DNA of 33,110 nt from a virus (lineage: Duplodnaviria; Caudoviricetes): positions 1 to 33,110 of the IMG/VR virus record IMGVR_UViG_3300010362_000066, one strand, 5' to 3'. Each line of letters begins with the position of its first letter. Position 1 is the first letter of the stretch. The notes under the pieces were generated by a model. The model was not told the DNA's origin and did not search any database. It saw only the letters and a list, made by a program, of their open reading frames with translations. The translations under genes were made by a program, and so were the position numbers. Positions 4,385 to 29,204 of this stretch are shown here, piece by piece.

Positions 4385-4402
4385 GCGCCACTGGAGTGAC
4401 GC

Positions 4403-5404: not shown

Positions 5405-5415
5405 AGGAGGCGCGC

Positions 5416-5853
5416 ATGTTTATCGACAATCTGTTACTGGTATCCGACGCGCAGGCCTTCACGGGCGCGGCGACTGTCTCGACCAACGTGATCGACCTGG
5501 GCAACGTCACGCCGAAGCGCGAGATCGGCACGGGCGAGGGCATGGGGTTCGGCGTGGCGTTCGACGTCGCCGCCGGCGCCGGCTCGACGCCGGTGATCGA
5601 TGTGATTCAGTCGGACGCGGCGGCAATGACGTCGCCCGATGTGATCGCCTCGGTCAGCGATGTGGCCGCGAACCTCACGGCCGGCAAGCTCCTCTTTGTC
5701 CCGATTCCGCCAGGCAAGCCAACGAAGGAGTTCCTCGCCATCCGCGTCACGATCACCGGCGGGACCACGACCGCCACGCTCACGTCGTGGCTGACGCATC
5801 GCGACCTCTTCTCGATCACGGCGAAGGCGTACGCGAAGAGCTACGTGGTGTGA
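5416..5853 (+). CDS. Capsid cement/decoration protein (Bbp16-like)
   Basis: AAGGAGG SD then ATG 5416; MFIDNLLLVSDAQA..STNVIDLG, beta-rich jelly-roll character. Confidence 0.85.
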   Translation: MFIDNLLLVSDAQAFTGAATVSTNVIDLGNVTPKREIGTGEGMGFGVAFDVAAGAGSTPVIDVIQSDAAAMTSPDVIASVSDVAANLTAGKLLFVPIPPGKPTKEFLAIRVTITGGTTTATLTSWLTHRDLFSITAKAYAKSYVV

Positions 5854-7121: not shown

Positions 7122-8381
7122 ATGCCCTACCGTCGCCCACCCGAACGCGGCCATACGGTCTACGTGCAAGCGGGCCCAAGTGTCGGCGCGACGGGCGCGA
7201 CCGGTGCGACCGGGCCCGCAGGTCCGGTCGGCCCCACTGGGGCGACGGGTCCCACGGGCGCGACGGGTCCTGCCGGCCCGACCGGCCCGGCAGGCGCCGA
7301 TGGTGCGCTCACCAACAGCAGCGGCGCCTTGACAGCGCACGCCGTGCTGCTCGGCAACGGCACGGTGGATGTGAAACCGATCGCGGCGCTCGGCACCGCC
7401 GGCCAGGTACTGACGAGCGGCGGCGCCGGCGTCGATCCAGCGTGGGCGACTCCCGCCGCCGCCGGCGGCACGGTCACACACACGGTCGGCGCACTGACCG
7501 ATCACGCGGTCGTGGTCGGCAACGCATCGGATGATCTCCAAGTCCTGAGCTCGCTCGGCACGGCAACCACGCTGTTGCACGGCAATGCGAGTGGCGACCC
7601 GACGTGGGGCGCCGTCGATCTCGCGGCTGATGTGACGGGCTCGTTGCCGCAGAGCGCCGTCGCGAGCCTCGTTAGTGACCTCGCGCTGAAAGCGCCGCTC
7701 GCGTCAGCCGCGCTGACCGGCACGCCGAGTGCGCCCACGCAGACGACGGGCGACAACTCGACCAAGCTCGCGACGACGGCATTCGTCGCCGCCGCCGTCG
7801 GCACGGCGAGCTACGCGCTGCCGTCGCTCGGCTCGTTTGCGTGGATCAACCAAGGCACGGCGGCGATCGACACGCTGACCACGGGCTACACGATGACCGC
7901 GCCGGTGGGGGCCTCCACCAACTGGCGCCTGCAAACGCTGGCGGCCCCAGCCACGCCCTACACGCTGACGACGGTGTTGCGGATGTCAGCCCTGATGGCG
8001 AATTTTCACCAAGTGGCGATCGGCTGGCGGCAATCCTCCGACGGCAAGCTCGTCACGTTTGGGCCGCAATGCAACACCAGCACGGCCTCCTACGGCATGC
8101 ATCTCGGCGTCCACAAGTACACCGCGGCCGCAGGGTCGTTCTCAGCAAGCTATGTGTCGGCCCTGCCCACGCGCCTCTCGACGGCCCCCTTCTGGCTCCG
8201 GATCAGCGATGACGGCACGAACCGCAAGTGTTGGATCTCGGCGGACGGCACGCACTGGCAGTTAGTGCACACGGTCGGGCGCACCGATTACCTGACGGCG
8301 GATCAGATTCTCTGGGGCGTCGATGTGGAGAACGCAACGTATGAGGGCCTCGCCACGCTGTTGTCCTGGGCGGTGACGTAA
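7122..8381 (+). CDS. Collagen-repeat tail fibre/appendage protein
   Basis: ATG 7122 right after upstream stop; 14 Gly-X-Y triplets; two ~40-aa GALT.HAV..GN repeats; KAPLASAALTGTPSAPT..ATTAFV fibre motif; lectin-like C-terminus. Confidence 0.85.
   Translation: MPYRRPPERGHTVYVQAGPSVGATGATGATGPAGPVGPTGATGPTGATGPAGPTGPAGADGALTNSSGALTAHAVLLGNGTVDVKPIAALGTAGQVLTSGGAGVDPAWATPAAAGGTVTHTVGALTDHAVVVGNASDDLQVLSSLGTATTLLHGNASGDPTWGAVDLAADVTGSLPQSAVASLVSDLALKAPLASAALTGTPSAPTQTTGDNSTKLATTAFVAAAVGTASYALPSLGSFAWINQGTAAIDTLTTGYTMTAPVGASTNWRLQTLAAPATPYTLTTVLRMSALMANFHQVAIGWRQSSDGKLVTFGPQCNTSTASYGMHLGVHKYTAAAGSFSASYVSALPTRLSTAPFWLRISDDGTNRKCWISADGTHWQLVHTVGRTDYLTADQILWGVDVENATYEGLATLLSWAVT
7185..7310 (+). repeat. 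Collagen-like (Gly-X-Y)14 coding repeat
   Basis: GAT GAT GAT GPA GPV GPT GAT GPT GAT GPA GPT GPA GAD GAL. Confidence 0.95.
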
Positions 8382-11300
8382 TGGCGACCGCTGCGCCGAA
8401 GTCGTCCGTACCCGATCGTGTCGTGTACCTCAACGTCTACGTGGTGCTGAAAGATCCCAACGAGGTCAAGTACTGGCAGCAGTGGTGTAAGGACCACAAC
8501 CTGCCTGGCGTCACGCCGCCGATTCTTGGCTACATCGATTCGCCGAACGCGCTCGCCACACGGCACAACGCGCCGTGGAAGGGCTACACCGATCCGAAGG
8601 TCGGCGGGAACTACAGTTGGTCGCCGTGGAAGGCCGACGACAAAGGCAACGCGTTCCCGCTCGATCAGGCGGTATTTCAGATCAAGAGCGGCGGGTTCTG
8701 GATTTTCGGCGGCACGGTGATCGAGTACCGCTGGCTCGCGCAGTTTGTCGTCGGCACCGATCCGGATCATCCCGACGGCGGCACGAGCACGGCCTACGGG
8801 CCGATTCGCAATCGCCGGTGGATCTGCGGCTTCGAGCTCGCCGCGATGCGGAAGGGCGACCTCGTTCGACTGTCGCCGGATGCCGCGCGCCATGTGGGCG
8901 GGCTCGGCTTCGCGATCCGACAGAACTCAGGCACGGTGAACATCACCACCACGTATTACGGCGGCACGGCCCCGCAGCAGAGTTGGGAACGCTTCTATCT
9001 GCGGCTGCGGCGGAAACCGACCACGACGAACCCTGTCTTCTGGCAAACACGCGGGACGCCGTCGACGACGCCGAGAGTGCAGCTGGGGATGACGCCCGCC
9101 GGCGACGTCGTGGCCTACGGCTACGATGGGTCGACCACCGTCACGCTCGGCACGGTCGTGCGGATGACCGAGTGGGACCCAGTCACCAATCCCCACGCGT
9201 GGCGGAAGTTCGATGTGTTCATCCGCTACGATGGCGCGGCGCCCGCCAGCAATACGAACCTCCTCAGCATCTTCGTGGATGGCAACCCCGTGTTCTCGGT
9301 CGGGCCCAACGTGCCTGGGTTAGCGACCAACGCGCACACCGACAGCGAGTTTGTATCGCCGAGTCTTGGGACGGACCTCCTCGAACTCGATGTCGATGAC
9401 TGGATCAACGCCGACCCCGGCAACGGCACCCCGCCGGTGGCGTACTTCGGGCCGACCGGCAAAGACGGCTATGCCGGCTCCAAGATCGTGCGGTTGCATC
9501 CGAAGGGCTTCTCCACCAACCACAACGCCGGGGCGTGGCCTGGCGATTTTCGCGTGCTCCTGCAGTCCATGATGACGCTGGGCGCGCCGATGTACGCGCT
9601 CTCGAGCAGCACCTCCGGCGCCCTGCTGGCGGTCGACACCGATGATGCGATTCAAGTCGATGCGGACACGGGCAAGTTCGGGTGCGCGGCGCTGCTCGCT
9701 GCCGCGGGCGGCGTGAAAACCTTTGCGGCGGCGAACGGGCAGGTCGGGGCGAGAGCGGCGGGCGTCACCAGCATGAAGACGATGACCGAGTCGAACGCAC
9801 TGACCGGCAACAGCGCATTGATGAACCCGCCGACGGTGGCCGTCGATCCGCCCGACTACACTCCGATCGAACTCCGGCGCACCAAAGGGACCGACGCGAA
9901 CGCCTCGAGTACGCACTGTCTCTCGGGCGAGGCCGAACTCGTCGGGACGTGGGCGAAGTGTGACCTCTACGCGCTGACGCCCGAAGCGCGGGCGATCTAT
10001 GACGCCTACGTCGAACCGGTGTGGGTGGGGCAACACAACTGGTCCTACCCGCTGTCGCCGTGGGCGCAAGGTGGGGAAGCGCCGCCGCTGTCGCCGTTCA
10101 TCGTCAAGTGCGGCACGTATGTCGGCAACAATACCGGCCAGGATCTCGAGTTCCGCGCGCCGGTCAACTGGCTCTGGATTCGCCGCACGGGCGGCGGCAC
10201 GGTGGGCGTCTATACGTGGTGGACGGGGATGCTCGGCGCGCACAAGGACCACAGCACGGCGGTGTCGTCGCAGGTCCCGCTCGGCATCGAGGATGCGACC
10301 TACGTCGGCGCGAGCGGCGAAGGGCAGCAGCAAAGCTACCTTCTGCGTCTCGCCGGCAACGATCCGAGCAACAACGCGATCGGGATCACCTACCAGTACA
10401 TCGCCGTCTGCGACCCTGGCTCGCGCTACATGCTGAACATGTCGTGCGTGCATCGCAACGCCGAGGGCACCTACGACAACAAGCTCGTGAACGCCGACTG
10501 GCTGACCGAGTTCGCGTTCCTGCAGATGGAAGAGGCCGGCGCCGGCCCCGCGCGCCCGCTGTATGCGCGCGGACCCAACAGCCAGAGCGATGCGATGTCG
10601 GCCTTCGACGTGGGCAACGCGATCACGAACAGCCTGAGTTTTGCGGCGGGGATCGTCACCAGCAAGGCCGGCGTGCACGCGGGCTCGTCGTACAACAACG
10701 CGTTCAGTCTCTGGCGCCACAGTGACGGCAACGGCGATCCGGGGCAGCCAGGCACGGTGCAGATCGGCGGCTACACGGGCGACGGCTCGGGCTCGCGCAC
10801 GATCGGCCTCACGCCGAGCGGCCTGCGGCCCGTGTTCGCGATTTTCTTCACCGAGGCGGTTGCCACGGGGTTCTGGCGCGATCCCTCGCACACCAGCACG
10901 AACAGCGCGAACTACGCCGGCACCGACACCGCGAACGGCATCACCGGCGGCGGCATCGATTCGATCACCGTCGGCAGTGCGCTGAACACGAACGCGATCC
11001 GCTACAACTATCTGGTCCTGATGGGCAGCGCGACGGCCGGCAACAACGGCTGGGGCGTGAACGGCGAGTTCATCAACGGGGAGTTCTATCCGCCGGCGAA
11101 CGGCCCGTGGCCGCCGATCACCGGCGAGCCGCCAGGCGCCCCAGGCACCGAGCCGCCAAGTGGCGGCGGCGGCGCGGGACCGCCGGAGCCGCCTGGGAAT
11201 AACACCGGCGCAGGGTGCGTCGGGTCGACGCAGTCGCTGATGAATCAGGCCCTGTCGCGGATCGGCGTCAGTAAGCAGATCGGCGACCTCGCCGCCGAGT

Positions 11301-12547
11301 TGACGATCGAGGCGACCAGCGCGCGCCTCATCGTGGACGATGACGTGGACGCGACCCTGCGCGACTTTGCCTGGCCGTTCGCCACGAAGTACGCCGCGCT
11401 CGCTCTCGTCAGCGGGAGTCCGGCCGCGCCGACGAATCAGGATTGGATCTACACCTACCAGCGCCCGGCGAATTGCGTCTACGAGCGGCGGATTGTCCTC
11501 GACCGCGGGACCGCGATCGATCCGACGCCGCCGCCGTTCGCGCTCGGGAGCGATGCCGCCGGCGGCGGCCTGATCTACTCCAACGTCGCGAACGCGGTCC
11601 TTGAGTACACCGCGCGCGTGTTCTGCCCCGCGAGCCAGGGCGACGCGCTCTTCCGCGAAGCGCTGATGTGGCGCTTTGCCGCGAGTCTCGCGCCGGCCCT
11701 CTCGCGCATGGAAGGCAAGACCGAGAACGCGCTACAGATGTACGAGCGCGTGCTGCTGAAGGCGCAGCAGATCCTGCGGCCGGGCAACCCCGGCAACCCT
11801 GCGGCGGCCGGTGCGCTGGATCAGAGCGCCGCCGCGCAGGCTGCGAACCTCGCGGTTGTGAATCTCGCGCTGGTCCGGATCGGGGCGCACACGATTCGGA
11901 GTCTGGCCGAGCAGAACCGCGAGGCGACCGCGGCCCGTCTCGTCTTCGAGGAGGAGCTCGTCGCGACACTGCGCGACTTCCCGTGGGCGTTTGCGACCGC
12001 CTACGTCGATCCCCTCACCCTGTTGAGTGGCACTCCAGCGGCGCCGGTCAATCCCGACTGGACCTATGCGTATGCGTTGCCGACCGATTGCGTGTTCGCG
12101 CGGCGACTGACGAGCGGCGCCAGGCGAACGTGGGAAGAGCAGCCGCCGAAGTTCCGCATCGGTCAGGACGGCACGACGCGCGCGCAAGTGCTCTTCACCG
12201 ACGAACAGGACGCGGCGCTCGAGTACACCGCGCGCCTCGACGGCATCGTCGCGCTCGGCGATCAACTCTTCCGCGAAGCGCTGTCGTGGAAACTCGCGGC
12301 CACGCTCGCGCCGTCGGTCGCGCAAGTTACGCCGGAGTATCCGCCTGAGCAATTCGGCCGCGGGCCCGATGACGCGCGCGAGCAGCGGACGCCGAAGCCG
12401 ACCGGCGTGCAACTGCGCCGGCAACTCGCGCTTGATGCCGCCGCGAACTACGCGGCGACCATCGCGAAGGCCAAAGCGATCAACGCGCGCGAGCAGCAGC
12501 CGGACCTCGACGAACCGGACGCCCCGTGGATTCTGGGGCGCAACTAG
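8381..12547 (+). CDS. Tail appendage protein fused to two tandem tail adaptor (tail tubular protein A, T7 gp11-like) domains
   Basis: ~900-aa beta-rich N-region with GTYVGN/GGYTGDG repeats, Pro/Gly linker, then two copies of N.AL.RIG...LRDF.W.FAT...W.Y.Y..P..C...LEYTAR...D.LFREAL.W..AA.LAP; precedes nozzle. Confidence 0.85.
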   Translation: MATAAPKSSVPDRVVYLNVYVVLKDPNEVKYWQQWCKDHNLPGVTPPILGYIDSPNALATRHNAPWKGYTDPKVGGNYSWSPWKADDKGNAFPLDQAVFQIKSGGFWIFGGTVIEYRWLAQFVVGTDPDHPDGGTSTAYGPIRNRRWICGFELAAMRKGDLVRLSPDAARHVGGLGFAIRQNSGTVNITTTYYGGTAPQQSWERFYLRLRRKPTTTNPVFWQTRGTPSTTPRVQLGMTPAGDVVAYGYDGSTTVTLGTVVRMTEWDPVTNPHAWRKFDVFIRYDGAAPASNTNLLSIFVDGNPVFSVGPNVPGLATNAHTDSEFVSPSLGTDLLELDVDDWINADPGNGTPPVAYFGPTGKDGYAGSKIVRLHPKGFSTNHNAGAWPGDFRVLLQSMMTLGAPMYALSSSTSGALLAVDTDDAIQVDADTGKFGCAALLAAAGGVKTFAAANGQVGARAAGVTSMKTMTESNALTGNSALMNPPTVAVDPPDYTPIELRRTKGTDANASSTHCLSGEAELVGTWAKCDLYALTPEARAIYDAYVEPVWVGQHNWSYPLSPWAQGGEAPPLSPFIVKCGTYVGNNTGQDLEFRAPVNWLWIRRTGGGTVGVYTWWTGMLGAHKDHSTAVSSQVPLGIEDATYVGASGEGQQQSYLLRLAGNDPSNNAIGITYQYIAVCDPGSRYMLNMSCVHRNAEGTYDNKLVNADWLTEFAFLQMEEAGAGPARPLYARGPNSQSDAMSAFDVGNAITNSLSFAAGIVTSKAGVHAGSSYNNAFSLWRHSDGNGDPGQPGTVQIGGYTGDGSGSRTIGLTPSGLRPVFAIFFTEAVATGFWRDPSHTSTNSANYAGTDTANGITGGGIDSITVGSALNTNAIRYNYLVLMGSATAGNNGWGVNGEFINGEFYPPANGPWPPITGEPPGAPGTEPPSGGGGAGPPEPPGNNTGAGCVGSTQSLMNQALSRIGVSKQIGDLAAELTIEATSARLIVDDDVDATLRDFAWPFATKYAALALVSGSPAAPTNQDWIYTYQRPANCVYERRIVLDRGTAIDPTPPPFALGSDAAGGGLIYSNVANAVLEYTARVFCPASQGDALFREALMWRFAASLAPALSRMEGKTENALQMYERVLLKAQQILRPGNPGNPAAAGALDQSAAAQAANLAVVNLALVRIGAHTIRSLAEQNREATAARLVFEEELVATLRDFPWAFATAYVDPLTLLSGTPAAPVNPDWTYAYALPTDCVFARRLTSGARRTWEEQPPKFRIGQDGTTRAQVLFTDEQDAALEYTARLDGIVALGDQLFREALSWKLAATLAPSVAQVTPEYPPEQFGRGPDDAREQRTPKPTGVQLRRQLALDAAANYAATIAKAKAINAREQQPDLDEPDAPWILGRN
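11225..12544 (+). repeat. Tandem duplication of the adaptor domain, ~618-nt period
   Basis: GAGTACACCGCGCGC at 11603 and 12221; CTCTTCCGCGAAGCGCTG at 11648 and 12266; both offsets 618 nt. Confidence 0.9.
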
Positions 12548-17195: not shown

Positions 17196-20100
17196 ATGGC
17201 CGGCAATCCTTTCGACGAGCAACTCGAGCAACTCACCGACGAGGAGAAGAAACAGAACCCGTTTCTCGAGGGGGCATTCCAAATCCGGGCGGCCGAAGAA
17301 GCGGCGCTCAAGACGTCCTTCAACGTCGGCGGCAACGTCTCGCCGGACCACGCCGCAGCCATTCTGAAAATCTCGCGCGAGACAGGCGCGCCGGAAGGCC
17401 TCGTCACGCGCCGCTACGATACCTTCCGGCGCCAAGTCGACAGCGACCAGGCCCACCGCGATGCCAAGGACACGCGCACCCTCGCCGACTGGCTCGGGAA
17501 TCCGACGAATGCCGCCGTCGCGCACGATGATGTGCCCACGCTCGCCGGCATGGAGCGGAGCCTCACGCTCGGCAGCAAGGCGACGAAGCCGTCACCGGAG
17601 GCGCAGCGCTTGTCGCGCTTGCTGGGGCAACTGCCGCTCAGCGACCTGACCGCGCAAATGGTATCGGCGGCCGCGAGTCAGAGCACGCCAACCGCCGACT
17701 TGATCACGCCCGGCAACATCGACCTCTTCGCGCAACCGCGCGTCCGCAACGCCGATGGCAGCATCAGCACCGTCGACAGCATCGGTGTCGAGCTCGATGG
17801 GAAGGAAGTGCTGTTGCCGACAGTCACACCGGACGGCCGGCACTTCGTCGGTGATCCGCAAGTCGTCCAGCAGCAGGCGGTCGACGAGTATCGGAAGACG
17901 GGCCAACACCTCGGCATCTTCCGCACCGCCGCCGCCTCAGACGCATACGCTGAGCGGCTCCATCGTCAGTATGCGGCCGGTGTCTACGATCAACCCGACC
18001 CGATGAAAGAGCCGGCGGCCCTCCGCGTGCCGGCGAACATCGCGCGGTCGACCGGCGCCGGCCTCATCGGCGGCGGCTACGGCAACATCGCCGGCGCCGT
18101 GCAAATGCTGGCGGACGTCTACAGCGAGGCGCGCCGCGACATCGGCGATGTGTTCGCGCACATTCGGTCCTTCCCGTCGATCGCGTTTCAAGGCTGGGCG
18201 CCGCCAGCAGCGCCGCAGAAAACGACCATCGGCGAGCTCGCCAAGCGCGAGGCGGAACGTGGCGAACGAGTCGCGCAAGCGCTCGGCCCGCCGCCGGCGA
18301 AGTACGGCTACGTCGAGCAACAGGTCTACAGCGGCTTTGAATCCGTCGGCGCGAACCTCCCAGGCATGGTCGCCGGCGTCCTCACGGCCAACCCGGAGCT
18401 CGGCCTCGGCCTGATGGGCGCCTCGAGCACGGGCGGGGCGTACCGGCAGGCGCGCAAAGAAGGCCTCGACGTCTACGAGGCGGCGGCGTTCGGCGGTCTG
18501 CAAGGGACGATCGAGGTCGCGACCGAAGGCCTGCCGATGCACTACTTCGTCGAGGACCTCACGCACAACGCGCCGCTGCGGAAACTGATCGTCCACCAAC
18601 TCGCGACCGAGCTACCGGGCGAGGAGATCGCGACCCTGTTGCAGGACCTAGTGGAGTGGGGCGAGCTCCCGTCGAACAAAGACAAGACGTTCGCTGACTA
18701 CCTCTGGGCACGGCCCGAACGCGCGGTCGCAACGGCGATCAGCACGATTGTCATGATCGGCACGTCGAGCATCGGCGGGCACGCCGCGAAGGCGGTTTTC
18801 GATCGGCTCGGCGCCGACGCGCAGAACTCCAACACGCTGAAGCGGGACCCCGCCTCCGTCGATGCGCTGATGACGCAGGCCGGCATCGCCACTGGCGTGA
18901 CGCACGTCTACGCGCCGACCGAGACGTTCACGACGTTCTATCAAGAACAAGGCATCGACCCGCGCGCGAAAGCGACCGAACTCACCGGCGACCCGACGGC
19001 GTATGACCGCGCCGTCGATCAAGGGCAAGACCTCCCGATTCCGATCGGCGCGTACGTGACCAAGATCGCCTCGGACCCGGTCGCGAATGCGTTCTTCTCG
19101 AATGAGTTCCGGCTCGACCCCAGCGAGCAGAACCGTCGCGAGCGTCTGGCGAGTCGCGAGGCGATGACCGAAGCGGCCGCGGCCGGCACCAAGACCGCCG
19201 ACGCCGACAAGAACGAACCGGTGCGGCTCGCGATTCGGGACCAACTCGAGGCGAGTGGCTACACGCCCGAAGTGGCCGACTTTCAGTCGCGCTTCTTCTT
19301 GCGCGTGTTCACGCGCTTGGCCGCGCGCGAGAAGGTCAATGCCGCGGACCTCTTCGCGCGCTACGGCCTCCGCATCGAGCGGCCCGACCTCCAGGCGCCG
19401 GAGCTCCGCGAGGCGCTCGAACGCGTGCGGACAGCCGCTGCGGAAGGGCGCACCGACCACCTCCAAGACCTCGCGAAGCATCCGGACAAGCAGGTCGCCG
19501 CGGCCGCCGAGGCCGCGCTGAAAGTCATGCAGGCGCAAGGCACCGACATCGCCGGCGCGCAAGTCGCGACGTCGATGAAGGATGAATCCATCGAGCGCCT
19601 GCGTGAGGTCGCCTCGAGTTCGGACCCAGTGCAGGCCGAGGCCGCACGCAACGAACTCACGACGCGCGAGATGCTGCCGCCGACACCCACGATCGAGCCT
19701 GGCGCGCCGGTGGGCGAAACCGTCGCCGCCGAAGCGCCGCCTGCGGCGGAAACGATCCCGCCGGCGCCGACCGGTCTGTCGCCAGAGGTCGAAGCGTATG
19801 TCGCCGCCATCCGCGCGCGCGCCGAACAGGCCGAAGCCGCGCGCGCGGCCGCCGAACGCGAAACCGCGCAGGAACGCGGCGAACGGCGCAAAGAAGAACG
19901 GCGCGCGATGACCGATCCGCTCACCGGCTTAGGTAGTCGCCGCGCCTACGATGCCGCGCTCAAGTCCGTCGAGGCCGATCCGAACATGGCCGTGATCGTG
20001 TTCGACGGCAATAATTTCGGCGCCGTCAACAAAGTTGCACAGAATCTCGGCGGCGGCCAGGAAGCCGGCGATGCGATAATCAAAGCGGGCGCGGACGCCG

Positions 20101-23100
20101 TCAAGCAGGCGGCTACTGAGTTTGGGTATGGCGCGCGCGTCTTCCGTCGGGGCGGCGATGAGTTCGTCGTCTTCGCTCCGCATGAATTCAAAGAGGCGAT
20201 TCGGCTTCGCGCCGAGCAACTCTTCACGCCTCGCGAATTCACGAAAGAGAACGGCGACACCTTCGAGGTGTCGCTCAGCGGATCGCACGGCAACACGTTT
20301 GCCGAAGCCGATGCGATCCTTCAAGCGGCTAAAGCCGAACGAAAGGCCCAGTATGCCCCTCGACCTCCGGCGAGTCGACCAACTGATCGCCTCCGGATCT
20401 CCCGTGAGAGCGGCGTTCCGCCAAGCCGCCCGCGAGAACGCGAAACGCCTGCGGGCCGCGAACGACGCAAGAGTCAACACCTGGATGCAGTCTTTGATGA
20501 ACTCCTCGGCTACGCCCGCGAACTCGACCCCACCGTCGACCCCGCCGCCCTCCGCGCCGAATTCGACTACCGAATAAACGCGCTTGAAGAGCGCGAAGCC
20601 GCGGTGCGTGGCGATGACGTGCCCACGCCGCGCGGCCTGCTTGAGGCGGTCGCGAAGCTCGGCGGCATCGGCGACGATCCTACGTTCCCTGGCGAACTGA
20701 AGTGGCTGAAGGAGGGGCAGACCTTCGGTCGCGTGCAGGGTGTGCGTGGCGTGTTCCAGAAGACCACGCAGGACGCGCGTGGCGTGCGCCAGACGGGCCA
20801 TAGCCTCGACGGCATGCTGGAACTGCTCCGGCAGGACCCGCGCTTCGCCGGCCTGCAGAACATCAACCACCTGATCGACGCGATCGACGATGCCATCCGG
20901 CATCCGCTCGAGGACGAGGGCGGCACGTTTCCCAGCACCGCCGAGTATGCGGCCGACCTGCAGATGTGGCCGGACGAGACGTGGTGGGAGGACTCCTGGC
21001 AGCGTCAGCCGGCGGCCGCCGAGCTCGCCGCCGCAGCGCCAGAGGGCATGCTCGAGCAGCGCCGGCCGCGCAAACAACCATCATTGCGCCGCGGCCAGAC
21101 CGTCCAACAGAACATCTACGGTGACCAGCGCTGGCACGTCGTCAACGCTCGGGGCGAATGGGGCCGCCAGAGCTACGCGACAGAGGCCGAGGCGCGCGCG
21201 GCCATGCTCGAGCCGCCCCGCGCGCCGAAAACGGGCGAGGGCGAACCTTACGAAACGGCCGCCGTTCACATCACGACGCCGGGCGGGCTGGCCGGCATTC
21301 GTGCGACGGGCTTCGATGTCGCGCGTGGCGGCGGCCTTGGCGGCGATACCTACGGCCCTGGGATCTATCTCGCCGACCGTTCCAGCGATGCGGCCAGCTT
21401 CTGGCGGGAGCAACTTCGCACGCGCGAGGCGTCGGGCGAGATCGAGACGACAGCGCTGCCGGCGCAAGTCAGGCTCCAGAACGCGCTGGTCGTCGAGGAC
21501 ATGCGCCCAGTCGGCGGCCGATACGGCGGCGACCTCATGCGCCAGCTCGACCGGCGCGACATCGTCGCCAAGCAGATGCCGGACCAACTCGCGCGGTTCG
21601 ATGAACTCGTCAAGCAGCACGACGGCTCAGAGAACCAGGCCCTCGGCCAACTCGCGCGCGAGAACGGCTACGACGGGCTCGTCTTCGAGCGCCGCCTCGG
21701 CACTGAGATCATCGCGTTCGATCCCAAGTCCGTCACGTTCGAGGGCGTAACGCCGCCAGCAGCCGAGGACGTGCTCCCGACCGGCGAAGTGCAACCTCGG
21801 TTGCCGGGGGCCGAGCCGGTCCGCGAGCAAGAGATCGCCACGCCACAAGTCGCCGAGGCGCAGTTCGCGCTCACGCCGCCGCCGGCGAAGCCGACGACGC
21901 CGGACCAGGGCACGCTGTTCCAGATGGCCGATGCGGCGACGGCCGTCGAGAACGTGGCCGCACTGGATGCGATGTTGCCCGTCGCCCGCGAGGGCAACTT
22001 CCCGAAGCGGCGTGATCTCAAAGTCCACATGCAGGAACTGGTGCGGCAGGCCGCCAAGGAGGCCGGCGCAAGTGTCGATCCGAGCACGCCTGAAGGGCAC
22101 GCCTACCTCGTCGGCATCGCGCTGCGCGATGTGCTCACCAGCCTCGGCTCGAATCCGAACGCCGTCGGCTGGTACGACGAGAAGACGCAGCAGGCGCTCG
22201 CCGTCGCCGCGCTGATTCATCCCGAACTCGAGCACGATGAGAACGCGCGCTTCGCCTTCACCTACGCGCTGGCGATTCATTCCAACGGTCTGCCCGTCAA
22301 TCAGAACTTCCAGATCGCGGATGCGGCCTACGAGGTCTACCGCAAGACGGGCCAAATGCCCTCGAACCTCGGCATCGGGGCGGCCCGTCAGCAGATCCGT
22401 CAGGCGGCTGAACTCTTCAACGAGCGCGTGCAGCAATGGGGCCTCGATACGTTCCGCAAGTTCATGCTCAGTGAGTTCACGGTCAGCGAACTCCGGCGGC
22501 TCGGCGAGGATGTGAACGGCGAGGCGGCGAGCGCGGTAGTGCGCGGCGCGGCCGTCATCGGGCCGAAGATCGGCAACGGGTTCTTCTCGAACCTCAATGG
22601 CTTCTTTGATGCGCTGACGATGGACCGCTGGCTGATGCGGACCTGGGGGCGCTGGACTGGGACGCTGCTGTTCGACAACGAGGCGCTCGTCCGCAAGAAG
22701 CGCGGCGAGTTACGGGACAGTGTGCGCCAGTTACTCGCGCGCGCCCCAGCGCAGGCGCGTGTCTTCGGCGAGGCGGTCGGGATCAATCTCGCCACGGTGC
22801 GGAAGCCGAAGGACATCGATGCGCTCGGACATGCCATTCGGAAGGCCAGCGCCGATCCGAACGTGCGCGCCGTCATGGCCGGCACGTCATGGGGCGATGC
22901 CGTCCGGCGTCACGGCAACATGCTCGGCGCGCATCTCGACGGACAAAAGGAGGCACCGGCCAATCCAGTCGAGCGTTCACAGATCCGCGCAGTATTTAGC
23001 GACGTCCTCGCCGAGCTCCAGCATCTCGGCTACACTGGAATGACGACGGCGGATTTACAGGCGCTGCTCTGGTATGCGGAGAAGCGGCTGTACGATGCCG

Positions 23101-26100
23101 GCACCTCGGAGAATGAGGTCGCGCAAGGCTACGAAGATTCCGAGGCACCAGACTATGCGAACGCGGCAAGCGCGCTCGCCCGTTCCAAGGGGATTAGCGA
23201 CGATGAAATCAACGCCACGCTTGCAAGAGTTACTCAGTCAACCGGTCGCGCCGATGACCGCGCAGGAGTTAGCGGACGAGCAGTTCCTGCAGCGGAAGCC
23301 GCGGAGCCCGGCGCAGGGCCAGCAGGACAAGCAGTTGGTCGAGGCTTTGCTCCAGCGGAACGAGAAGCCTTCCTCGCCCGCTACGCCAAAGCCCCCCACC
23401 ACGGAGCCGTCCATCTAACGCCCACGCTCGAGCGCGAAGCCCGCGCCGAGCCTGCCCGCATCCCCGGCAGCAGCAACCTCGGCACCTTCTTCCAATCGCT
23501 CCTAGACGCGGTCGACGAACAGACCGGCGCCCCGTTCTATTCCCGCCTGCAGCGCGCGGTCGAAACCTCCCAACAAGCGAAGGCGAGCGGCGCCCAGTGG
23601 AAGGCGACGATCAAGAACGCGAAGGTCGGCATCAATCGCGACGAGTACGCGCTCACCAGAGTCGAGGACCTCGAGGACGGCAAGACGTACACGAAGCAGG
23701 AAGTCCTCGACTACCTGAAACAGAACGCCGTGCAGGTCGAGACGCGCGTGCTCGGCGAACAGGCGGGCCCGTCCAAGGAGGCGATCCACCAACGGCGTCA
23801 GGCCATCTACGAAGGGTGGGTCGATGAGAAGGTCCAAGAGATTGAGGAGTATCGGGGCGGGCCGCCAGAGCTACCCACGCCGGAAACCGACGTTGGCTAC
23901 AACAAGGACGAGGGCGGATGGGAAGCGGCGGTCGATGGTGACGACCTCGGGTTTATCTACGACAGCCAGGAAGAAGCGCAGCAGGCGGCTGACGCAGAAG
24001 CGCAGAAGCGCCTTGAGAAAGATGAGCAAGACCTCCGAGAGGCTCTGCGCGACCATGCCCAATCGTTGTTGCCGCCCGATGCCTGGGACGAAGCCTTAAC
24101 GCAGGCCGAGCAAGAACTCGGCGCCGACCAAGCAGGTTCACGCTATGGCGAGTACGTCGAACCGGGCGGCGAACCTGGCTCCTATCGCGAGGTCTTCCTC
24201 ACGGCACCTGAGGCGGCCGCGACCGACAACGGGCAACAGTGGCAAGACGGCCATGAGGAGTACGGCGATATTGAGAACCCGATCGTGCGGTTGCGCTACA
24301 ACATTCGCACGACGGCCGACGGCCAGCGCGTGCTCTTCCTCGAGGAGGTGCAGCCGCCGCATGAGGACGAGCAGAAGCGAATGCCGGAGCTCTTCCGCAA
24401 AAACTGGCGCGAGATGGCGTTCAAGTACGCGCTCCGCATTGCCGCCGAGCAGGGCCTCGACGGGGTGACGTGGACACGCGGTGAACAGCAGGCGCAGCGC
24501 TATCGGCTTGAGCAGGTCGTGCAGAAGATCGACTGGACGCCGCTGACTGAACAAGAGCACGGCTTGGAGGGCAAGCACGTCATCATCAACACGCGGCGCG
24601 GGCTCATGGGCCTGATTGTGGAGCCCAACGGTCGGATAGCCGATACGCGAGCGCAAGCACCGGACGACTGGGTCGGCCGATCACTCGCCGATGTGATCGG
24701 CAAGGAACTCGCCTCGCAGGTTGTCGAAGGCGAGGCCCGTGGCGAAATCAGCGGCGAGGGTCTGAAGATCGGCGGCGAGGGCTTAAAGAAACTCTACGAC
24801 GTCGACTTCCGCAACGTCGTGAACAGCCTTCCGGCGGTCAAGCGCAGCGGGGCCAAGGTCGAGCGGCTCATCGTCAGCGAGCTCGGCACCGAAGGCCGCA
24901 TCACCAAGCAATTAGACGAACTCCACGAAGAGATGCAGCGTGAGCGGGCATACGGGCGGATGACGGAATCGATGGAGAACGTCTATCAGCGGCGCGAGCG
25001 CGAGCTCATGGCCTCACTCGCCGTCGCCGGGCTGGAAGGGGAACGCGAGACGAATCAAGGCGTGATGTTCACGCCTGAGCTCCGCGAGGCCGTCATGGGC
25101 GGCCAGACCTTGTTCCAGCGCGAGGGCGATGAGGGCGAGGCCGGCGCGGCCGCCCCGCCGGCCGAAGGCGCCGCGCCGACCGCACCACCACCAGGGCAGA
25201 CGGCGCGCGGTGGGTATTCGCGGCTCGCCTCAGGCCGCCTCATTCAACTGTTCGAGCAAGCCAACTTCTCGACGTTCCTCCATGAGACGGCGCACTTCTA
25301 CTTCGATGTCATGGCGGACTTGGCCGCGCGTCCCGATGCCTCGCCGGAGCTCCAGCGCGACATGGCAACCATCTTCAAATGGATCGGCCATGAGGGTGAC
25401 ATCCACGCGTGGCAGGCGCTCAGTCTCAACGAGCAGCGCGAGGGGCACGAGAAATTCGCAGACGGGTTCAACGCGTACCTGATGGAAGGCAAGGCGCCGA
25501 GTCTGCAGATGCAGACGATCTTCGATCGCTTCCGCGGCTGGCTGCTCGACATCTACAAAGCGGTCGAGGCCCTCGGCGTCAATCTCACGCCAGACGTTCG
25601 CGACGTCTTCGACCGGATGATCGCGACCGACCAGGAGGTCGCCGACGCTGAGCAGGCGCGCGACGTCCCGCCGCTGTTCTTGACACCCGAGCAGGCCGGC
25701 GTCTCGCGCGAACGGTTCGAGCACTATCGCCAGAAACTTGAGGACGCCTCCCGCCAAAGTCGCGAACGGCTCGAGAAGAAGGCGCTCGAGGATGTGCGCC
25801 GGCGCCAGACGGCCGAATGGCAAGCGCGCCGCGCGACGACCGAGACGCAGGTCCGCAGCGAGCTCGCCACGCAACCCGCCTACATCGCCCTGACGGCCAT
25901 GCAACGCGGCACGACGCCGGAGGGCGCGCCGCTGGTCGAGGGCCTCGAGGTCCGGCCGCAGAAACTCTCGCGCAAACTGCTGGCCGAGCGGTTCGGCGAA
26001 GAACGCGTCAAGCAACTCCGCGAGATCCCTGGTCCGTTGATCTACACCCGCGACGAACAGGGGCTTGATCCGGATTTGCTCGCCGAGCTCTACGGCTTCT

Positions 26101-29100
26101 CGAGTACCGATGAAATGCTCAAGGCCGTCCAGGCGGTGCTGCCCTACGAGCAAGCCGTCACCGCCGAAACCGACCGCCGGATGAAGGCGCAGTACGGCGA
26201 ACAGCCCGTCGAGAACCAACTCACCGACGCCTCGCGTGCCGCGCTGATGCACGACTCGCGTGAGGAGATTATTCGCGACGAACTCCGGATGCTCGCGCAA
26301 CTCCGGCAACGCAACGCCCGCGGCGAAGCGCGCGCCGACCTCGCGCAACAACGCGCGAACCAAGCCTACGAGCGCCGCTGGTTCGAGGCGGAAGCGCGTC
26401 TGCGGATCGCGATTGCGGAAGGCCGGAAGCAATCCGAGATCGATACGCTGCGCGACCAGCTCCGCACGCTGAAGGGGGAGGCCCGCGGCGGCGCGGCGCG
26501 CATCAATGCCGCGTTGCCCTCGGCCAAAGAGATCCGGTCCTACGCGCAGGCGACGATCAACGGGATGCTCGTCCGCGACATTCGACCCGACATCTACTGG
26601 GCGGCCGCGCGCAAAGCGGGCAAGGCGGCGGTCGACCACGCCGCCCGCCAGAATTTCGACGAAGCCATTAAGGCCAAGCAGCAGGAGCTCCTCAACACCG
26701 CGCTCTATCGCGAGGCCACGCGCGTGCTCGAGGAAGTGAACGCGCGGGCCCTGGCGGCACGGGACCTCGGCCGCGGGCCGGCGCGCGCGCGGTTGGGGCT
26801 CGCCGGCGAGACGTATCTGGATCAGGTCGACGGCATCCTCGACCGCTACGAATTCGCGCGGGTATCGAACAAGGTGCTCGAGCGCCGCGCCAGCATTCGC
26901 GCGTGGGTCGCCGCGATGCAAGGCGAGAACATGCCGGTCGAACTCCCCGAACTCGTCCTCGAGGAGGCCCACCGCAAGAACTACCGCGAGCTCACGGTCG
27001 AGCAGTTCATGGCGGTGACCGACGGCCTCGCGCAGATCGCGCACTTGGCGCAACTGAAGAACAAACTGCTGACCGCGAAGAAGCAGCGCGACTTCCAGAC
27101 GACGCGCGACGGCATCGTCGACCACATCGAGCAGCACGGGAAAGCGCGCCCGAAACCGATCGCGATCCGGATCAGCGATGCGCCGGCGCGCAAGGTCGGC
27201 GAGTGGATCGCCTCGCATACCAAGCTCGCCGAATTCATCGCGCGCCTCGACGGCTACGTCCAGGGCGGCCCGATGTGGACGGCGATCATGAAACCGCTGA
27301 ACGAAGCAGCGACACGGGCCGCCGTCATACAAGAGCGAGCCGCGCAGCGGCTCAGCGAGATTCTGACCACGGCGTACAGCGGCGCCGAGGTCGCTGCACT
27401 CCGCGGACCGAGCGCGAAACAGAAGGCGCTCGGGCTGGGCAAGGACACGCTGCTCTTCATTCCGGCGATCAACGCGAGCCTCACGAAAGAAGAGCGCCTC
27501 GCGGTCGCGCTCAACTGGGGCAATGCCGGCAACCGACAGCGGCTGATGGAGTCGGGCCGCAACTGGAACGAGACGCAGGTCCAGGCGATTCTCAACACGC
27601 TCGACGAGCGCGACCTGAAGTTCGTTCAGGACACGCTCGACTACATCAACTCGTTCTGGCCCCAGATCGAAGCGCAGGACCGCCGCCTCAAAGGCCTGCC
27701 GCCGGACAAGGTCGAGCCGGCGTCGTGGGTGCATCCGCAGTTCGGCGAACAGCGTGGCGGCTACTACCCGATCGCCTATGACGGACGGCTCTCCGTCCGC
27801 GCTGACCAACTGATCAACGCCGGCGAGGCGAATCTGCAGGCGCACGCGGCGTATGCGTACGCGACCACGCGTCATGGCTACACCAAAGAGCGCCAGGCCA
27901 AGGTCAACCAACCGGTCCGTCTCGAGCTCAGCGTGATGTACGAGCACCTCGAGCAGATCATTCATTCGCTGTCGCATCGCGAAGTGATGATCGACGTCGG
28001 CCGACTGCTCGCCGATCGGAAGATCCAAGACGCCATCGTGTCGCGCGAGGGCGACCTCGGCTACAAGGCGATGCGCGACAACCTCCTCGACATCGCGCTC
28101 GGGACGCAGCACGCCACGAACATCGTCGACCGGGCGATGACCTATCTTCGCAACGGCGGCACGCTCGCCGGCCTCGGCTGGAACGTGTGGACGGCAGTGC
28201 AACAACCGATCGGCATCCTGAACGGGGCGGTCATCAACGGGCCCGTGTGGCAGGCGCGTGGCCTGATGCGCTTCCTGCGCGACACCAGCACGATGGAGTG
28301 GAGCTCGCAGTGGGTGTACGCGAAGTCCGAGATGATGCGCCTGCGCGGGCAGACGGCGAACCGCGACATCGCCGAGATGCGGAATTCGCTCACCCGCAGC
28401 GGGTCTTGGTTCGACAACATCCTGCGAACCGTGAGCGGCGACCGCCTCGAGCGCGAGGACATCACCAACAGTTACCTCGCGCTGATTGAGCTCGGGCAGA
28501 AGATGGCCGACATCCCGACGTGGATCGGCGCCTACGAGCGGCACCGTAGCGCCGGTGAAACAGAGGAGCGGGCGACGGCGCTCGCCGACCAGGCGGTGCT
28601 CGATGCCCAGAGCGGCGGCCAGATGAAGGACCTCGCGAAAGTGCAGCGCGGCTCGCCGGCGTTCAAGCTGTTCACGATGTTCTACAGCTACGGCAACCTG
28701 ATGTTCAACCAGACGGTGCGCGTGTATGGGCGCGACTGGGTGCATGGCGGCTCGGTCGGCCAGATGCTCGGCAACCTGTCGCTGCTCTACATCGCGCCGG
28801 CGGCGCTCACCGTCGCACTCGCGAAGGCCTTCGGCAAGGGTGACGACAAGGAGCCGTGGTACCTCGCGATGGGCAAAGAGGTCCTCGCGACCGCCATGAA
28901 CATGATGGTGTGGGTGCGCGAGTTCGGTCCGCTCGCCACTGGGCGCACGGGCGGGCGCGGGTACGAAGGCCCGAGCGGCACCCGCTTCGTCTCGAGCGTC
29001 TACAAACTCGGGCAACAGATTGAGCAGGGCAAAGCCGACCGTGGCCTCGTCCGCGCGACCGAGGACGTGGCGAGCATTCTCTTCAAGCTGCCGCTCGGCC

Positions 29101-29204
29101 AAGTGCAACGCTCGATCGATGGCTTCGTCGCGATTCAGGAAGGCAAGACCAAGAACCCGCTGGTCATCTTGACTGGCGCGCCTGCCAAGAAGAAAGCGAG
29201 TTAA
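17196..29204 (+). CDS. Giant (4002 aa) polyvalent ejection protein with GGDEF, ART-like, HhH-GPD-like and HExxH peptidase domains
   Basis: Uninterrupted ORF in the T7 gp16 position; LPD22-like N-terminus (NPTNAAVAHDDV); STFLHETAH; GGYYPIAYD and FTMFYSY in the conserved C-terminal core. Confidence 0.9.
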   Translation: MAGNPFDEQLEQLTDEEKKQNPFLEGAFQIRAAEEAALKTSFNVGGNVSPDHAAAILKISRETGAPEGLVTRRYDTFRRQVDSDQAHRDAKDTRTLADWLGNPTNAAVAHDDVPTLAGMERSLTLGSKATKPSPEAQRLSRLLGQLPLSDLTAQMVSAAASQSTPTADLITPGNIDLFAQPRVRNADGSISTVDSIGVELDGKEVLLPTVTPDGRHFVGDPQVVQQQAVDEYRKTGQHLGIFRTAAASDAYAERLHRQYAAGVYDQPDPMKEPAALRVPANIARSTGAGLIGGGYGNIAGAVQMLADVYSEARRDIGDVFAHIRSFPSIAFQGWAPPAAPQKTTIGELAKREAERGERVAQALGPPPAKYGYVEQQVYSGFESVGANLPGMVAGVLTANPELGLGLMGASSTGGAYRQARKEGLDVYEAAAFGGLQGTIEVATEGLPMHYFVEDLTHNAPLRKLIVHQLATELPGEEIATLLQDLVEWGELPSNKDKTFADYLWARPERAVATAISTIVMIGTSSIGGHAAKAVFDRLGADAQNSNTLKRDPASVDALMTQAGIATGVTHVYAPTETFTTFYQEQGIDPRAKATELTGDPTAYDRAVDQGQDLPIPIGAYVTKIASDPVANAFFSNEFRLDPSEQNRRERLASREAMTEAAAAGTKTADADKNEPVRLAIRDQLEASGYTPEVADFQSRFFLRVFTRLAAREKVNAADLFARYGLRIERPDLQAPELREALERVRTAAAEGRTDHLQDLAKHPDKQVAAAAEAALKVMQAQGTDIAGAQVATSMKDESIERLREVASSSDPVQAEAARNELTTREMLPPTPTIEPGAPVGETVAAEAPPAAETIPPAPTGLSPEVEAYVAAIRARAEQAEAARAAAERETAQERGERRKEERRAMTDPLTGLGSRRAYDAALKSVEADPNMAVIVFDGNNFGAVNKVAQNLGGGQEAGDAIIKAGADAVKQAATEFGYGARVFRRGGDEFVVFAPHEFKEAIRLRAEQLFTPREFTKENGDTFEVSLSGSHGNTFAEADAILQAAKAERKAQYAPRPPASRPTDRLRISRESGVPPSRPRERETPAGRERRKSQHLDAVFDELLGYARELDPTVDPAALRAEFDYRINALEEREAAVRGDDVPTPRGLLEAVAKLGGIGDDPTFPGELKWLKEGQTFGRVQGVRGVFQKTTQDARGVRQTGHSLDGMLELLRQDPRFAGLQNINHLIDAIDDAIRHPLEDEGGTFPSTAEYAADLQMWPDETWWEDSWQRQPAAAELAAAAPEGMLEQRRPRKQPSLRRGQTVQQNIYGDQRWHVVNARGEWGRQSYATEAEARAAMLEPPRAPKTGEGEPYETAAVHITTPGGLAGIRATGFDVARGGGLGGDTYGPGIYLADRSSDAASFWREQLRTREASGEIETTALPAQVRLQNALVVEDMRPVGGRYGGDLMRQLDRRDIVAKQMPDQLARFDELVKQHDGSENQALGQLARENGYDGLVFERRLGTEIIAFDPKSVTFEGVTPPAAEDVLPTGEVQPRLPGAEPVREQEIATPQVAEAQFALTPPPAKPTTPDQGTLFQMADAATAVENVAALDAMLPVAREGNFPKRRDLKVHMQELVRQAAKEAGASVDPSTPEGHAYLVGIALRDVLTSLGSNPNAVGWYDEKTQQALAVAALIHPELEHDENARFAFTYALAIHSNGLPVNQNFQIADAAYEVYRKTGQMPSNLGIGAARQQIRQAAELFNERVQQWGLDTFRKFMLSEFTVSELRRLGEDVNGEAASAVVRGAAVIGPKIGNGFFSNLNGFFDALTMDRWLMRTWGRWTGTLLFDNEALVRKKRGELRDSVRQLLARAPAQARVFGEAVGINLATVRKPKDIDALGHAIRKASADPNVRAVMAGTSWGDAVRRHGNMLGAHLDGQKEAPANPVERSQIRAVFSDVLAELQHLGYTGMTTADLQALLWYAEKRLYDAGTSENEVAQGYEDSEAPDYANAASALARSKGISDDEINATLARVTQSTGRADDRAGVSGRAVPAAEAAEPGAGPAGQAVGRGFAPAEREAFLARYAKAPHHGAVHLTPTLEREARAEPARIPGSSNLGTFFQSLLDAVDEQTGAPFYSRLQRAVETSQQAKASGAQWKATIKNAKVGINRDEYALTRVEDLEDGKTYTKQEVLDYLKQNAVQVETRVLGEQAGPSKEAIHQRRQAIYEGWVDEKVQEIEEYRGGPPELPTPETDVGYNKDEGGWEAAVDGDDLGFIYDSQEEAQQAADAEAQKRLEKDEQDLREALRDHAQSLLPPDAWDEALTQAEQELGADQAGSRYGEYVEPGGEPGSYREVFLTAPEAAATDNGQQWQDGHEEYGDIENPIVRLRYNIRTTADGQRVLFLEEVQPPHEDEQKRMPELFRKNWREMAFKYALRIAAEQGLDGVTWTRGEQQAQRYRLEQVVQKIDWTPLTEQEHGLEGKHVIINTRRGLMGLIVEPNGRIADTRAQAPDDWVGRSLADVIGKELASQVVEGEARGEISGEGLKIGGEGLKKLYDVDFRNVVNSLPAVKRSGAKVERLIVSELGTEGRITKQLDELHEEMQRERAYGRMTESMENVYQRRERELMASLAVAGLEGERETNQGVMFTPELREAVMGGQTLFQREGDEGEAGAAAPPAEGAAPTAPPPGQTARGGYSRLASGRLIQLFEQANFSTFLHETAHFYFDVMADLAARPDASPELQRDMATIFKWIGHEGDIHAWQALSLNEQREGHEKFADGFNAYLMEGKAPSLQMQTIFDRFRGWLLDIYKAVEALGVNLTPDVRDVFDRMIATDQEVADAEQARDVPPLFLTPEQAGVSRERFEHYRQKLEDASRQSRERLEKKALEDVRRRQTAEWQARRATTETQVRSELATQPAYIALTAMQRGTTPEGAPLVEGLEVRPQKLSRKLLAERFGEERVKQLREIPGPLIYTRDEQGLDPDLLAELYGFSSTDEMLKAVQAVLPYEQAVTAETDRRMKAQYGEQPVENQLTDASRAALMHDSREEIIRDELRMLAQLRQRNARGEARADLAQQRANQAYERRWFEAEARLRIAIAEGRKQSEIDTLRDQLRTLKGEARGGAARINAALPSAKEIRSYAQATINGMLVRDIRPDIYWAAARKAGKAAVDHAARQNFDEAIKAKQQELLNTALYREATRVLEEVNARALAARDLGRGPARARLGLAGETYLDQVDGILDRYEFARVSNKVLERRASIRAWVAAMQGENMPVELPELVLEEAHRKNYRELTVEQFMAVTDGLAQIAHLAQLKNKLLTAKKQRDFQTTRDGIVDHIEQHGKARPKPIAIRISDAPARKVGEWIASHTKLAEFIARLDGYVQGGPMWTAIMKPLNEAATRAAVIQERAAQRLSEILTTAYSGAEVAALRGPSAKQKALGLGKDTLLFIPAINASLTKEERLAVALNWGNAGNRQRLMESGRNWNETQVQAILNTLDERDLKFVQDTLDYINSFWPQIEAQDRRLKGLPPDKVEPASWVHPQFGEQRGGYYPIAYDGRLSVRADQLINAGEANLQAHAAYAYATTRHGYTKERQAKVNQPVRLELSVMYEHLEQIIHSLSHREVMIDVGRLLADRKIQDAIVSREGDLGYKAMRDNLLDIALGTQHATNIVDRAMTYLRNGGTLAGLGWNVWTAVQQPIGILNGAVINGPVWQARGLMRFLRDTSTMEWSSQWVYAKSEMMRLRGQTANRDIAEMRNSLTRSGSWFDNILRTVSGDRLEREDITNSYLALIELGQKMADIPTWIGAYERHRSAGETEERATALADQAVLDAQSGGQMKDLAKVQRGSPAFKLFTMFYSYGNLMFNQTVRVYGRDWVHGGSVGQMLGNLSLLYIAPAALTVALAKAFGKGDDKEPWYLAMGKEVLATAMNMMVWVREFGPLATGRTGGRGYEGPSGTRFVSSVYKLGQQIEQGKADRGLVRATEDVASILFKLPLGQVQRSIDGFVAIQEGKTKNPLVILTGAPAKKKAS
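19908..20345 (+). other. GGDEF (diguanylate cyclase-like) domain within the giant protein
   Basis: TDPLTGLGSRRAY, IVFDGNNFGAVN, GQEAGDAII, FRRGGDEFVV (GGDEF at 20151-20165), VSLSGS. Confidence 0.9.
20353..20577 (+). CDS. Candidate overprinted gene 1 (+1 frame, 74 aa) directly after the GGDEF domain
   Basis: GAAAGG 6 nt before ATG 20353; over 50 codons GC3 is 40/50 in this frame vs 25/50 in the host frame (hand count); MPLDLRRVDQLIASGSPVRAAFRQAARENAKRL. Confidence 0.6.
   Translation: MPLDLRRVDQLIASGSPVRAAFRQAARENAKRLRAANDARVNTWMQSLMNSSATPANSTPPSTPPPSAPNSTTE
21249..21740 (+). other. ADP-ribosyltransferase-like (ART-PolyVal type) domain
   Basis: AVHITT...GFD...YGPGIYLA...A...VRLQNAL...GYDGLVF...TEIIAFDPKSV pattern (H 21267, E 21705). 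Confidence 0.7.
22161..23090 (+). other. HhH-GPD DNA-glycosylase-like domain
   Basis: GWYD..., VIGPKIGNGFFSNL..LTMDRWLMRT (K and D spaced like G.KTA...VDTH..R), C-terminal LQALLWY. Confidence 0.5.
23203..23418 (+). CDS. Candidate overprinted gene 2 (+1 frame, 71 aa) directly after the glycosylase-like domain
   Basis: AAGGGGA 9 nt before ATG 23203; over 50 codons GC3 is 41/50 in this frame vs 19/50 in the host frame (hand count); MKSTPRLQELLSQPVAPMTAQELADEQFLQ. Confidence 0.65.
   Translation: MKSTPRLQELLSQPVAPMTAQELADEQFLQRKPRSPAQGQQDKQLVEALLQRNEKPSSPATPKPPTTEPSI
25203..25620 (+). other. Zincin-like metallopeptidase (MPTase-like) domain
   Basis: ARGGY...IQLFEQANFSTFLHETAH (HExxH at 25281-25295) and downstream HEKFA as candidate third ligand. 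Confidence 0.75.

Follow-up and report, generated by a model that had tools for sequence, protein, structure and literature searches.

A small gene very likely nested in the +1 frame of a giant podophage protein gene accompanies the downstream domain, not the adjacent GGDEF domain

Same-strand embedded genes of phages, such as lambda Rz1 within Rz and phiX174 E within D, are read in the +1 frame of a larger gene from a ribosome-binding site (RBS) of their own. Polyvalent phage proteins form a different class of system; in the work of Iyer et al. (PMC5512222), GGDEF is named among their domains and their packaging in the capsid is inferred. Small phage peptides are represented by the YIPs of PB1-like phages, described (PMC8085984) as 3.6-kDa predicted membrane peptides encoded in the early region and raising c-di-GMP, with relatives absent outside Pbunavirus. 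Finally, the protein family phrog_2423 (PHROGs v4) is of unknown function and includes phiEap-2 ALA45591.1 and ORF22 (S1_022) of Pbunavirus SCUT-S1; for the latter, 7 peptides amounting to 77% coverage were recovered from DNA-emptied particles (PMC6521218). Here we compare with these systems a small +1 open reading frame (ORF) located inside a giant phage gene, directly after its GGDEF domain.

The giant gene of the window and its +1 frame

The window, that is, the whole stretch of DNA analysed (33,110 nucleotides), is a linear 33-kb virus record, 77% complete, with the gene order of a podophage: portal, GP7 capsid, tail and gp14-like genes, followed by an ORF of 4002 residues. The product of this ORF carries LPD22 at residues 41-124 and has the characters of a polyvalent protein, being large and multi-domain, combining an LPD with enzyme domains and lying in the virion module. 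It resembles the proteins of PMC5512222 in the pairing of LPD22 with GGDEF and in belonging to a portal/terminase-type phage, and, like them, it is likely packaged in the capsid. Twenty other giant proteins match this region of the window, 19 of them with GGDEF. Elsewhere in the window, a 485-codon frame (4396-5853) overlaps the major capsid gene (4403-5404), with a Bbp16 match confined to its last third (residues 349-460); the match is probably to a separate downstream gene whose open frame extends over the capsid gene. The 1388-residue protein of 8381-12547 has a tail-protein match only at residues 951-1131, preceded by a long unassigned N-terminal part. The features discussed below are as follows.

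17196..29204, + strand: giant ejection/polyvalent protein gene, 4002 residues, with LPD22, GGDEF and a phrog_9880 C-terminus
19881..20351, + strand: GGDEF domain of the giant protein, with an intact GGDEF signature and a family-specific DxNNF motif
20341..20346, + strand: Shine-Dalgarno (SD)-like GAAAGG, seen in the sequence 6 bases 5' of the ATG
20352..20480, + strand: host-frame low-complexity linker, with a dip in GC3; the other reading of the nested gene
20353..20577, + strand: nested +1 ORF, 74 residues, from ATG 20353 to TAA 20575-20577, in frame +1 relative to the gene at 17196-29204
20353..20450, + strand: core of the nested gene, about 33 codons, defined by conservation; basic, predicted helix-turn-helix hairpin
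20451..20577, + strand: non-conserved tail of the nested ORF, varying in length and sequence among homologues
20481..20942, + strand: unnamed helical domain D1, directly 3' of the nested core; partner of the short nested form
23203..23418, + strand: second nested +1 ORF, 71 residues, preceded by AAGGGG (23187-23192), with the strongest codon flip in the gene

The original prediction had described a +1 gene of 74 residues opening with GAAAGG, a 6-nt spacer and ATG, within about 10 nt of the end of the GGDEF domain. These elements are all in place: GAAAGG occupies 20341-20346, within the final codons of the C-terminal helix of GGDEF, and the family alignment ends at about 20351, a few bases before the ATG, the Pfam GGDEF match ending at residue 1028, short of that point. 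The GC3 values given for the first 50 codons (25/50 for the host and 40/50 for the +1 reading) are also exact, and the former does lie well below the gene as a whole, which has a mean GC3 of 0.82 and a value of 26 at the 1st percentile of its 50-codon windows. Since GC3 of the +1 frame equals GC1 of the host frame (gene mean 0.71), the figure of 40/50 is by itself weakly informative. In the giant gene, +1 frames that begin with ATG and run for 50 codons or more number 37, four of them with an SD-like 4-mer. With a codon model trained on the window's own genes, the log-odds of the +1 frame exceed those of the host frame at only two places in 4002 codons, 20316-20500 and 23166-23430. The +1 frame is open from 20080, with further ATGs upstream of 20353; the start at 20353 is preferred because homologues begin at the equivalent position with an SD. 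The SD of the window is weak, and its nested ORF is the one with the weakest codon signal. No internal promoter was found on the + strand, and the RNA folds at the starts were unremarkable.

Residues 1-40 of the nested peptide are predicted to form a two-helix hairpin (helices 5-13 and 18-39, pLDDT 87.6), and residues 1-36 have a pI of about 11.9. The S/T/P-rich part of the tail corresponds to host domain D1 read in +1. Fold searches with the peptide and PDB sequence searches gave nothing significant, and the ESM Atlas returned only unnamed clusters under 0.9.

Conservation of the +1 frame and linkage to D1/D2

Phage loci collected with the GGDEF alignment comprised 17 distinct long GGDEF-bearing ORFs with DNA after the domain, including the window; duplicates (L009, L026, L027 and L028), L025, truncated at the domain, short stand-alone GGDEF genes (L011, L012, L030 and L032) and weak matches (L017-L021 and L035-L091) were left out. 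A second scan, baited with the peptide-family profile alone, yielded eight further loci, seven of them distinct and all with long forms of the nested gene. No matches were obtained in a scan with a single GGDEF, nor new loci in further scans (A4, A5 and A6); scan A7 gave none in viral sequences and, among genomes, L107. Being identical to 17355-23945 of the window, L107 is not an independent relative; it occurs in a genome bin titled Steroidobacteraceae bacterium, a hint of the host that comes from binning only. The search of viral contigs with the single peptide, suggested in the original prediction, was carried out and returned L001 and L002, both rejected as chance matches that lie out of frame over an unrelated gene.

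The expectation that homologous GGDEF cassettes would also carry the +1 frame proved right for 8 of the 17 loci, where a +1 ORF lies just 3' of the domain (three short forms, namely the window, L013 and L004, and five long forms), and wrong for the other nine. Lengths among homologues are 56, 61 and 74 residues, and an SD of the GAGG/GGAG type precedes the equivalent ATG in L004, L013, L006, L007 and L023; L033 contains frameshifts, yet still matches the profile (E 3e-7). A profile of L013 and L004 ranked the window peptide best of 604 six-frame segments (E 2.5e-6). Between the window and L013, identity is 14/24 in the +1 frame versus 9/24 in the host frame, and pN/pS is 0.74 versus 2.53. The comparison of selection in both frames, also anticipated, thus favours the +1 frame in this pair but not in window/L004 and L013/L004, where pN/pS is near 1 in both frames. 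For the long-form pair L006/L007, pN/pS is 0.52 in the +1 frame and 2.16 in the host frame, and the GGDEF domain of the same pair shows 5 non-synonymous and 32 synonymous differences in the host frame. Of 37 columns compared in 11 long-form loci, the small frame has 8 that are invariant and the host frame has none; seven of the eight are written with several codons, and the small frame is the more identical one in 53 of 55 locus pairs, a comparison tilted toward the small frame because some of these loci were peptide-baited. A clear SD or start is missing in about 4 of the 11. The conservation makes it highly probable that the +1 frame is a selected gene, and a real nested gene is very likely.

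This gene goes with the domain that follows it. Among the GGDEF loci, it is present at 8/8 with D1 or D2 directly downstream and at 0/9 without, by profiles of D1 and D2 that were themselves built from loci positive for the nested gene. Relatedness between D1 and D2 is undetectable, yet the nested gene accompanies both; D1 (model pLDDT 73.6) has no match in Pfam or in a fold search. At all eight peptide-baited loci the gene is nested in +1 within an open frame of 1456 codons or more, with D2 after it and no GGDEF nearby; the window-type GGDEF family was found nowhere in these eight records, six of which are at least 94% complete, in a search that did detect it in the control G002. The closest relative of the window linker (P0019, 20/25 identical) has D1 and lacks GGDEF. 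It is the one protein behind the case of a short form without GGDEF and is known without DNA; from its protein sequence, the +1 reading could be identical at 22/24 positions, a degree of compatibility reached in 389/3000 null draws and hence not significant. A complex prediction for GGDEF, D1 and the peptide scored 0.01, a value that counts neither for nor against a contact, and the GGDEF tree lacks the resolution to order the events. The nested gene adjoins GGDEF but is not tied to the cyclase: the part of the original prediction that proposed a second +1-frame gene under selection stands, whereas its proposal of an inhibitor or regulator of the cyclase is not supported.

The GGDEF family of the window (19881-20351) is itself unusual in its metal-binding motif, reading DxNNFGxVNK where solved cyclases show DxDxFKxxND. 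The lysine of the latter motif is catalytic in canonical cyclases, and since it is missing here, the activity or product of the phage family may differ. The same family also occurs as short stand-alone phage genes (L011 2923-3447, L012 2860-3444 and L030 1139-1690), and two tandem copies are present in P0002.

Relation to phrog_2423

The long forms match phrog_2423 with E values of 8e-4 to 1e-5. This family and the nested gene have in common a helix-Gly-helix core with L-x-x-x-G and A-x-x-x-A, small size, basic character and a place in the late structural region; the known phrog_2423 members are free-standing or N-terminal fusions, whereas the window gene is nested out of frame. The window peptide found no match at a useful threshold in Pfam, PHROGs or NCBIfam and none directly with the phrog_2423 family profile, and the segment preceding the first helix, which makes up the N-terminal third of the family, is absent in the window, L013 and L004. 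With the short forms excluded from its construction, a family profile missed the window, found L013 at E 8e-5 (partly via the tail) and L004 only at E 1, and profile-profile alignment (hhalign) of the short with the free-standing and long forms gave a probability of 33% and E 4e-4. An intermediate is provided by P0027, which combines in tandem a long unit with a short one resembling that of the window, the conserved stretch reaching window residue 31. Because direct matches are lacking and the profile-profile support is modest, the assignment of the short form to the phrog_2423 family through such intermediates is likely on sequence grounds, but not firm. Tandem pairs of small-family units are also seen in P0029, P0064 and P0066, in addition to P0027.

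Searched against 1.84 billion proteins, the family profile gave 58 matches, free-standing basic members included, and a free-standing member used as the query matched 465 phage records. In six records inspected, a free-standing member lies among head, portal or terminase genes in four and among tRNAs in one (phiCbK); in the sixth, the module forms the beginning of the head protease. Of 33 longer proteins scanned, the match of the module was shown in 32, always at or near the N-terminus, with a head protease as the fusion partner in 2 of the 33; a domain of another module fusion, P0119, recurs at residues 169-256 of the giant protein (E 5e-24). A GGDEF fusion is absent from the 120 proteins listed of 520. 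A C-terminal motif conserved among the nested long forms is missing from the free-standing ones, and 2 of 8 records have a free-standing copy in addition to the nested one. Prochlorococcus phage MED4-184 has an unannotated free-standing member in its head module (L095; NC_020847.1, 3001-3129). As for binding of c-di-GMP, Arg-Leu-Gly is the start of the MshEN c-di-GMP-binding motif. It does not occur as such in the nested peptide family, Pfam MshEN was detected in 0/31 family members at E up to 1, and the profile aligned with the c-di-GMP-binding domain of PilF at a non-significant E of 0.5-1.

Possible roles, history and comparison with known systems

The best explanation, to which we give a probability of roughly 0.45, is that the nested gene encodes a small virion protein, basic and two-helical, which acts via D1/D2 as an escort of the giant protein into the head and is not directed at the cyclase. 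The peptide would be translated from its own RBS on the late mRNA of the giant gene and would become a virion protein, a location suggested by the distant family member in SCUT-S1 particles. Supplied in trans, it would grip the domain encoded just after it (D1/D2) and so load the giant protein. The escort role is suggested by the occurrence of the same module as an N-terminal leader on head proteases and on the protein sharing a domain with the giant protein.

A tentative alternative is an independent small basic virion protein that binds to DNA, to the inner capsid or to the scaffold, its position before D1/D2 reflecting inherited gene order only. The high pI, the occurrence of free-standing members in the head modules of phages that lack a giant protein in the neighbourhood and the Pbunavirus member found in virions are all in line with such a protein, as is the lack of a second copy in 7 of the 9 nested-copy records at least 90% complete, or in 6 of 8 if the count is confined to G001, G002, G014, G017, G019 and G020, which show none, and to G015 and G016. 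It accounts less well for a linkage to D1/D2 that is strict in giant proteins with different upstream domains, for the C-terminal motif conserved on nested long forms only, and for the two records that retain both copies. As points against an escort, the nested copies of such records may serve another function, and the linkage to D1/D2 could be no more than co-inheritance. An inhibitor or regulator that silences the adjacent diguanylate cyclase in late expression, or a peptide sensing c-di-GMP, appears quite improbable on the distribution of the sequences: the nested ORF does directly follow GGDEF in the window and at seven other loci, phage peptides binding a diguanylate cyclase are known from the YIPs, a different family (PMC8085984), and the PilF matches point the same way at non-significant E values (0.5-1), but this GGDEF family occurs in 0/8 peptide-baited records, 9/17 GGDEF loci lack the peptide, P0019 retains the linker without GGDEF, and the counts for MshEN (0/31) and for GGDEF fusions (none in 120 listed) are zero.

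Two further readings are less favourable to a gene. That the frame is in this phage the decaying, N-terminally shortened and untranslated relic of an engulfed gene is unlikely; the missing N-terminal third of the family, the weak SD and codon signal and the pN/pS near 1 in two of the three short-form pairs would be expected of a relic, whereas an ATG, an SD and an open core retained in three divergent phages, the same short unit in P0027 and a host-frame pN/pS of 2.5 against L013 would not. A chance open frame, produced by high GC in a low-complexity linker, is highly improbable: frames of this kind are numerous in the gene (the 37 counted above), but the codon flip, the conservation of the +1 frame and the identity and profile tests oppose it, and such an island is seen in 0/11 other long GC3-rich forward ORFs.

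On the escort reading, the small gene would likely have stood before D1/D2 and then been engulfed as upstream domains were fused in frame. The ages of overlapping frames have been judged by distribution and codon usage (PMC8227390); an inner frame overprinted de novo should be the rarer and the codon-atypical one, whereas here the inner frame has likely free-standing relatives in 465 records and outscores the host frame in codon usage. Old de novo frames can also acquire genome-like codon usage, according to PMC3494269. Its free-standing relatives and a codon usage like that of the genome make the small frame the likely ancestral reading and the host linker a likely younger one, arisen de novo; the term "overprinted", applied earlier to the small gene, thus likely has the direction backwards. 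More generally, giant ejection proteins might possibly grow by reading through older small genes, with the engulfed genes kept as domain-specific escorts, and a capsid-targeting leader that acts in cis on head proteases elsewhere might here act in trans from inside the gene of its cargo; we offer both ideas tentatively.

The second nested ORF (23203-23418) is unrelated in sequence to that at 20353 and follows a large unnamed domain (residues ~1560-1975), which P0018 also has, at 71%. Judged from protein sequence only, this island is compatible with conservation in P0018 at 39/54 positions, a value reached in 0/1500 null draws. Such +1 islands occur in 9 of 11 GC-rich GGDEF-bearing long ORFs, a set enriched for known-positive loci, versus none of the 11 remaining long forward ORFs whose GC3 is at least 0.8, a control count that omits islands in antisense or low-GC3 long frames (G002, G011, G013 and L024). 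The last of these contains a +1 ORF of 115 residues (4259-4603) with AAGGAGG and without a match in PHROGs or NCBIfam; the stretch just 3' of it resembles a DarB-type methylase domain. In G007, a +1 island at codons ~2540-2620 of the giant ORF (L119/L120), 1500 codons past GGDEF, has a GAGG and encodes a basic product whose end faintly resembles the C-terminal motif of the family (E 0.18, not significant). Since gene callers miss nested genes, giant ejection genes hold more proteins than annotated, and an inner frame likely older than the outer one would make some low-complexity linkers by-products. Should the module be a head-targeting leader, it would be relevant to the loading of very large proteins by podophages, and a widespread, unstudied family becomes testable.

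Among the described systems, the YIPs and the window peptide are both small phage peptides in a c-di-GMP context and are set apart by the description in PMC8085984. For polyvalent proteins, we found no description of nested genes in open-access main texts, and the word "overlap" is absent from the main text of PMC5512222; the window adds a test that separates the nested gene from the cyclase. With Rz1 in Rz and E in D, the window gene shares the arrangement of a small +1 gene lying wholly within a larger one and provided with its own RBS. Rz1 and E are lysis genes, whereas the nested gene is not one, and its inner frame is likely the ancestral of the two. Same-strand embedded phage genes are thus already a known kind, to which nesting within a polyvalent giant gene adds a new case.
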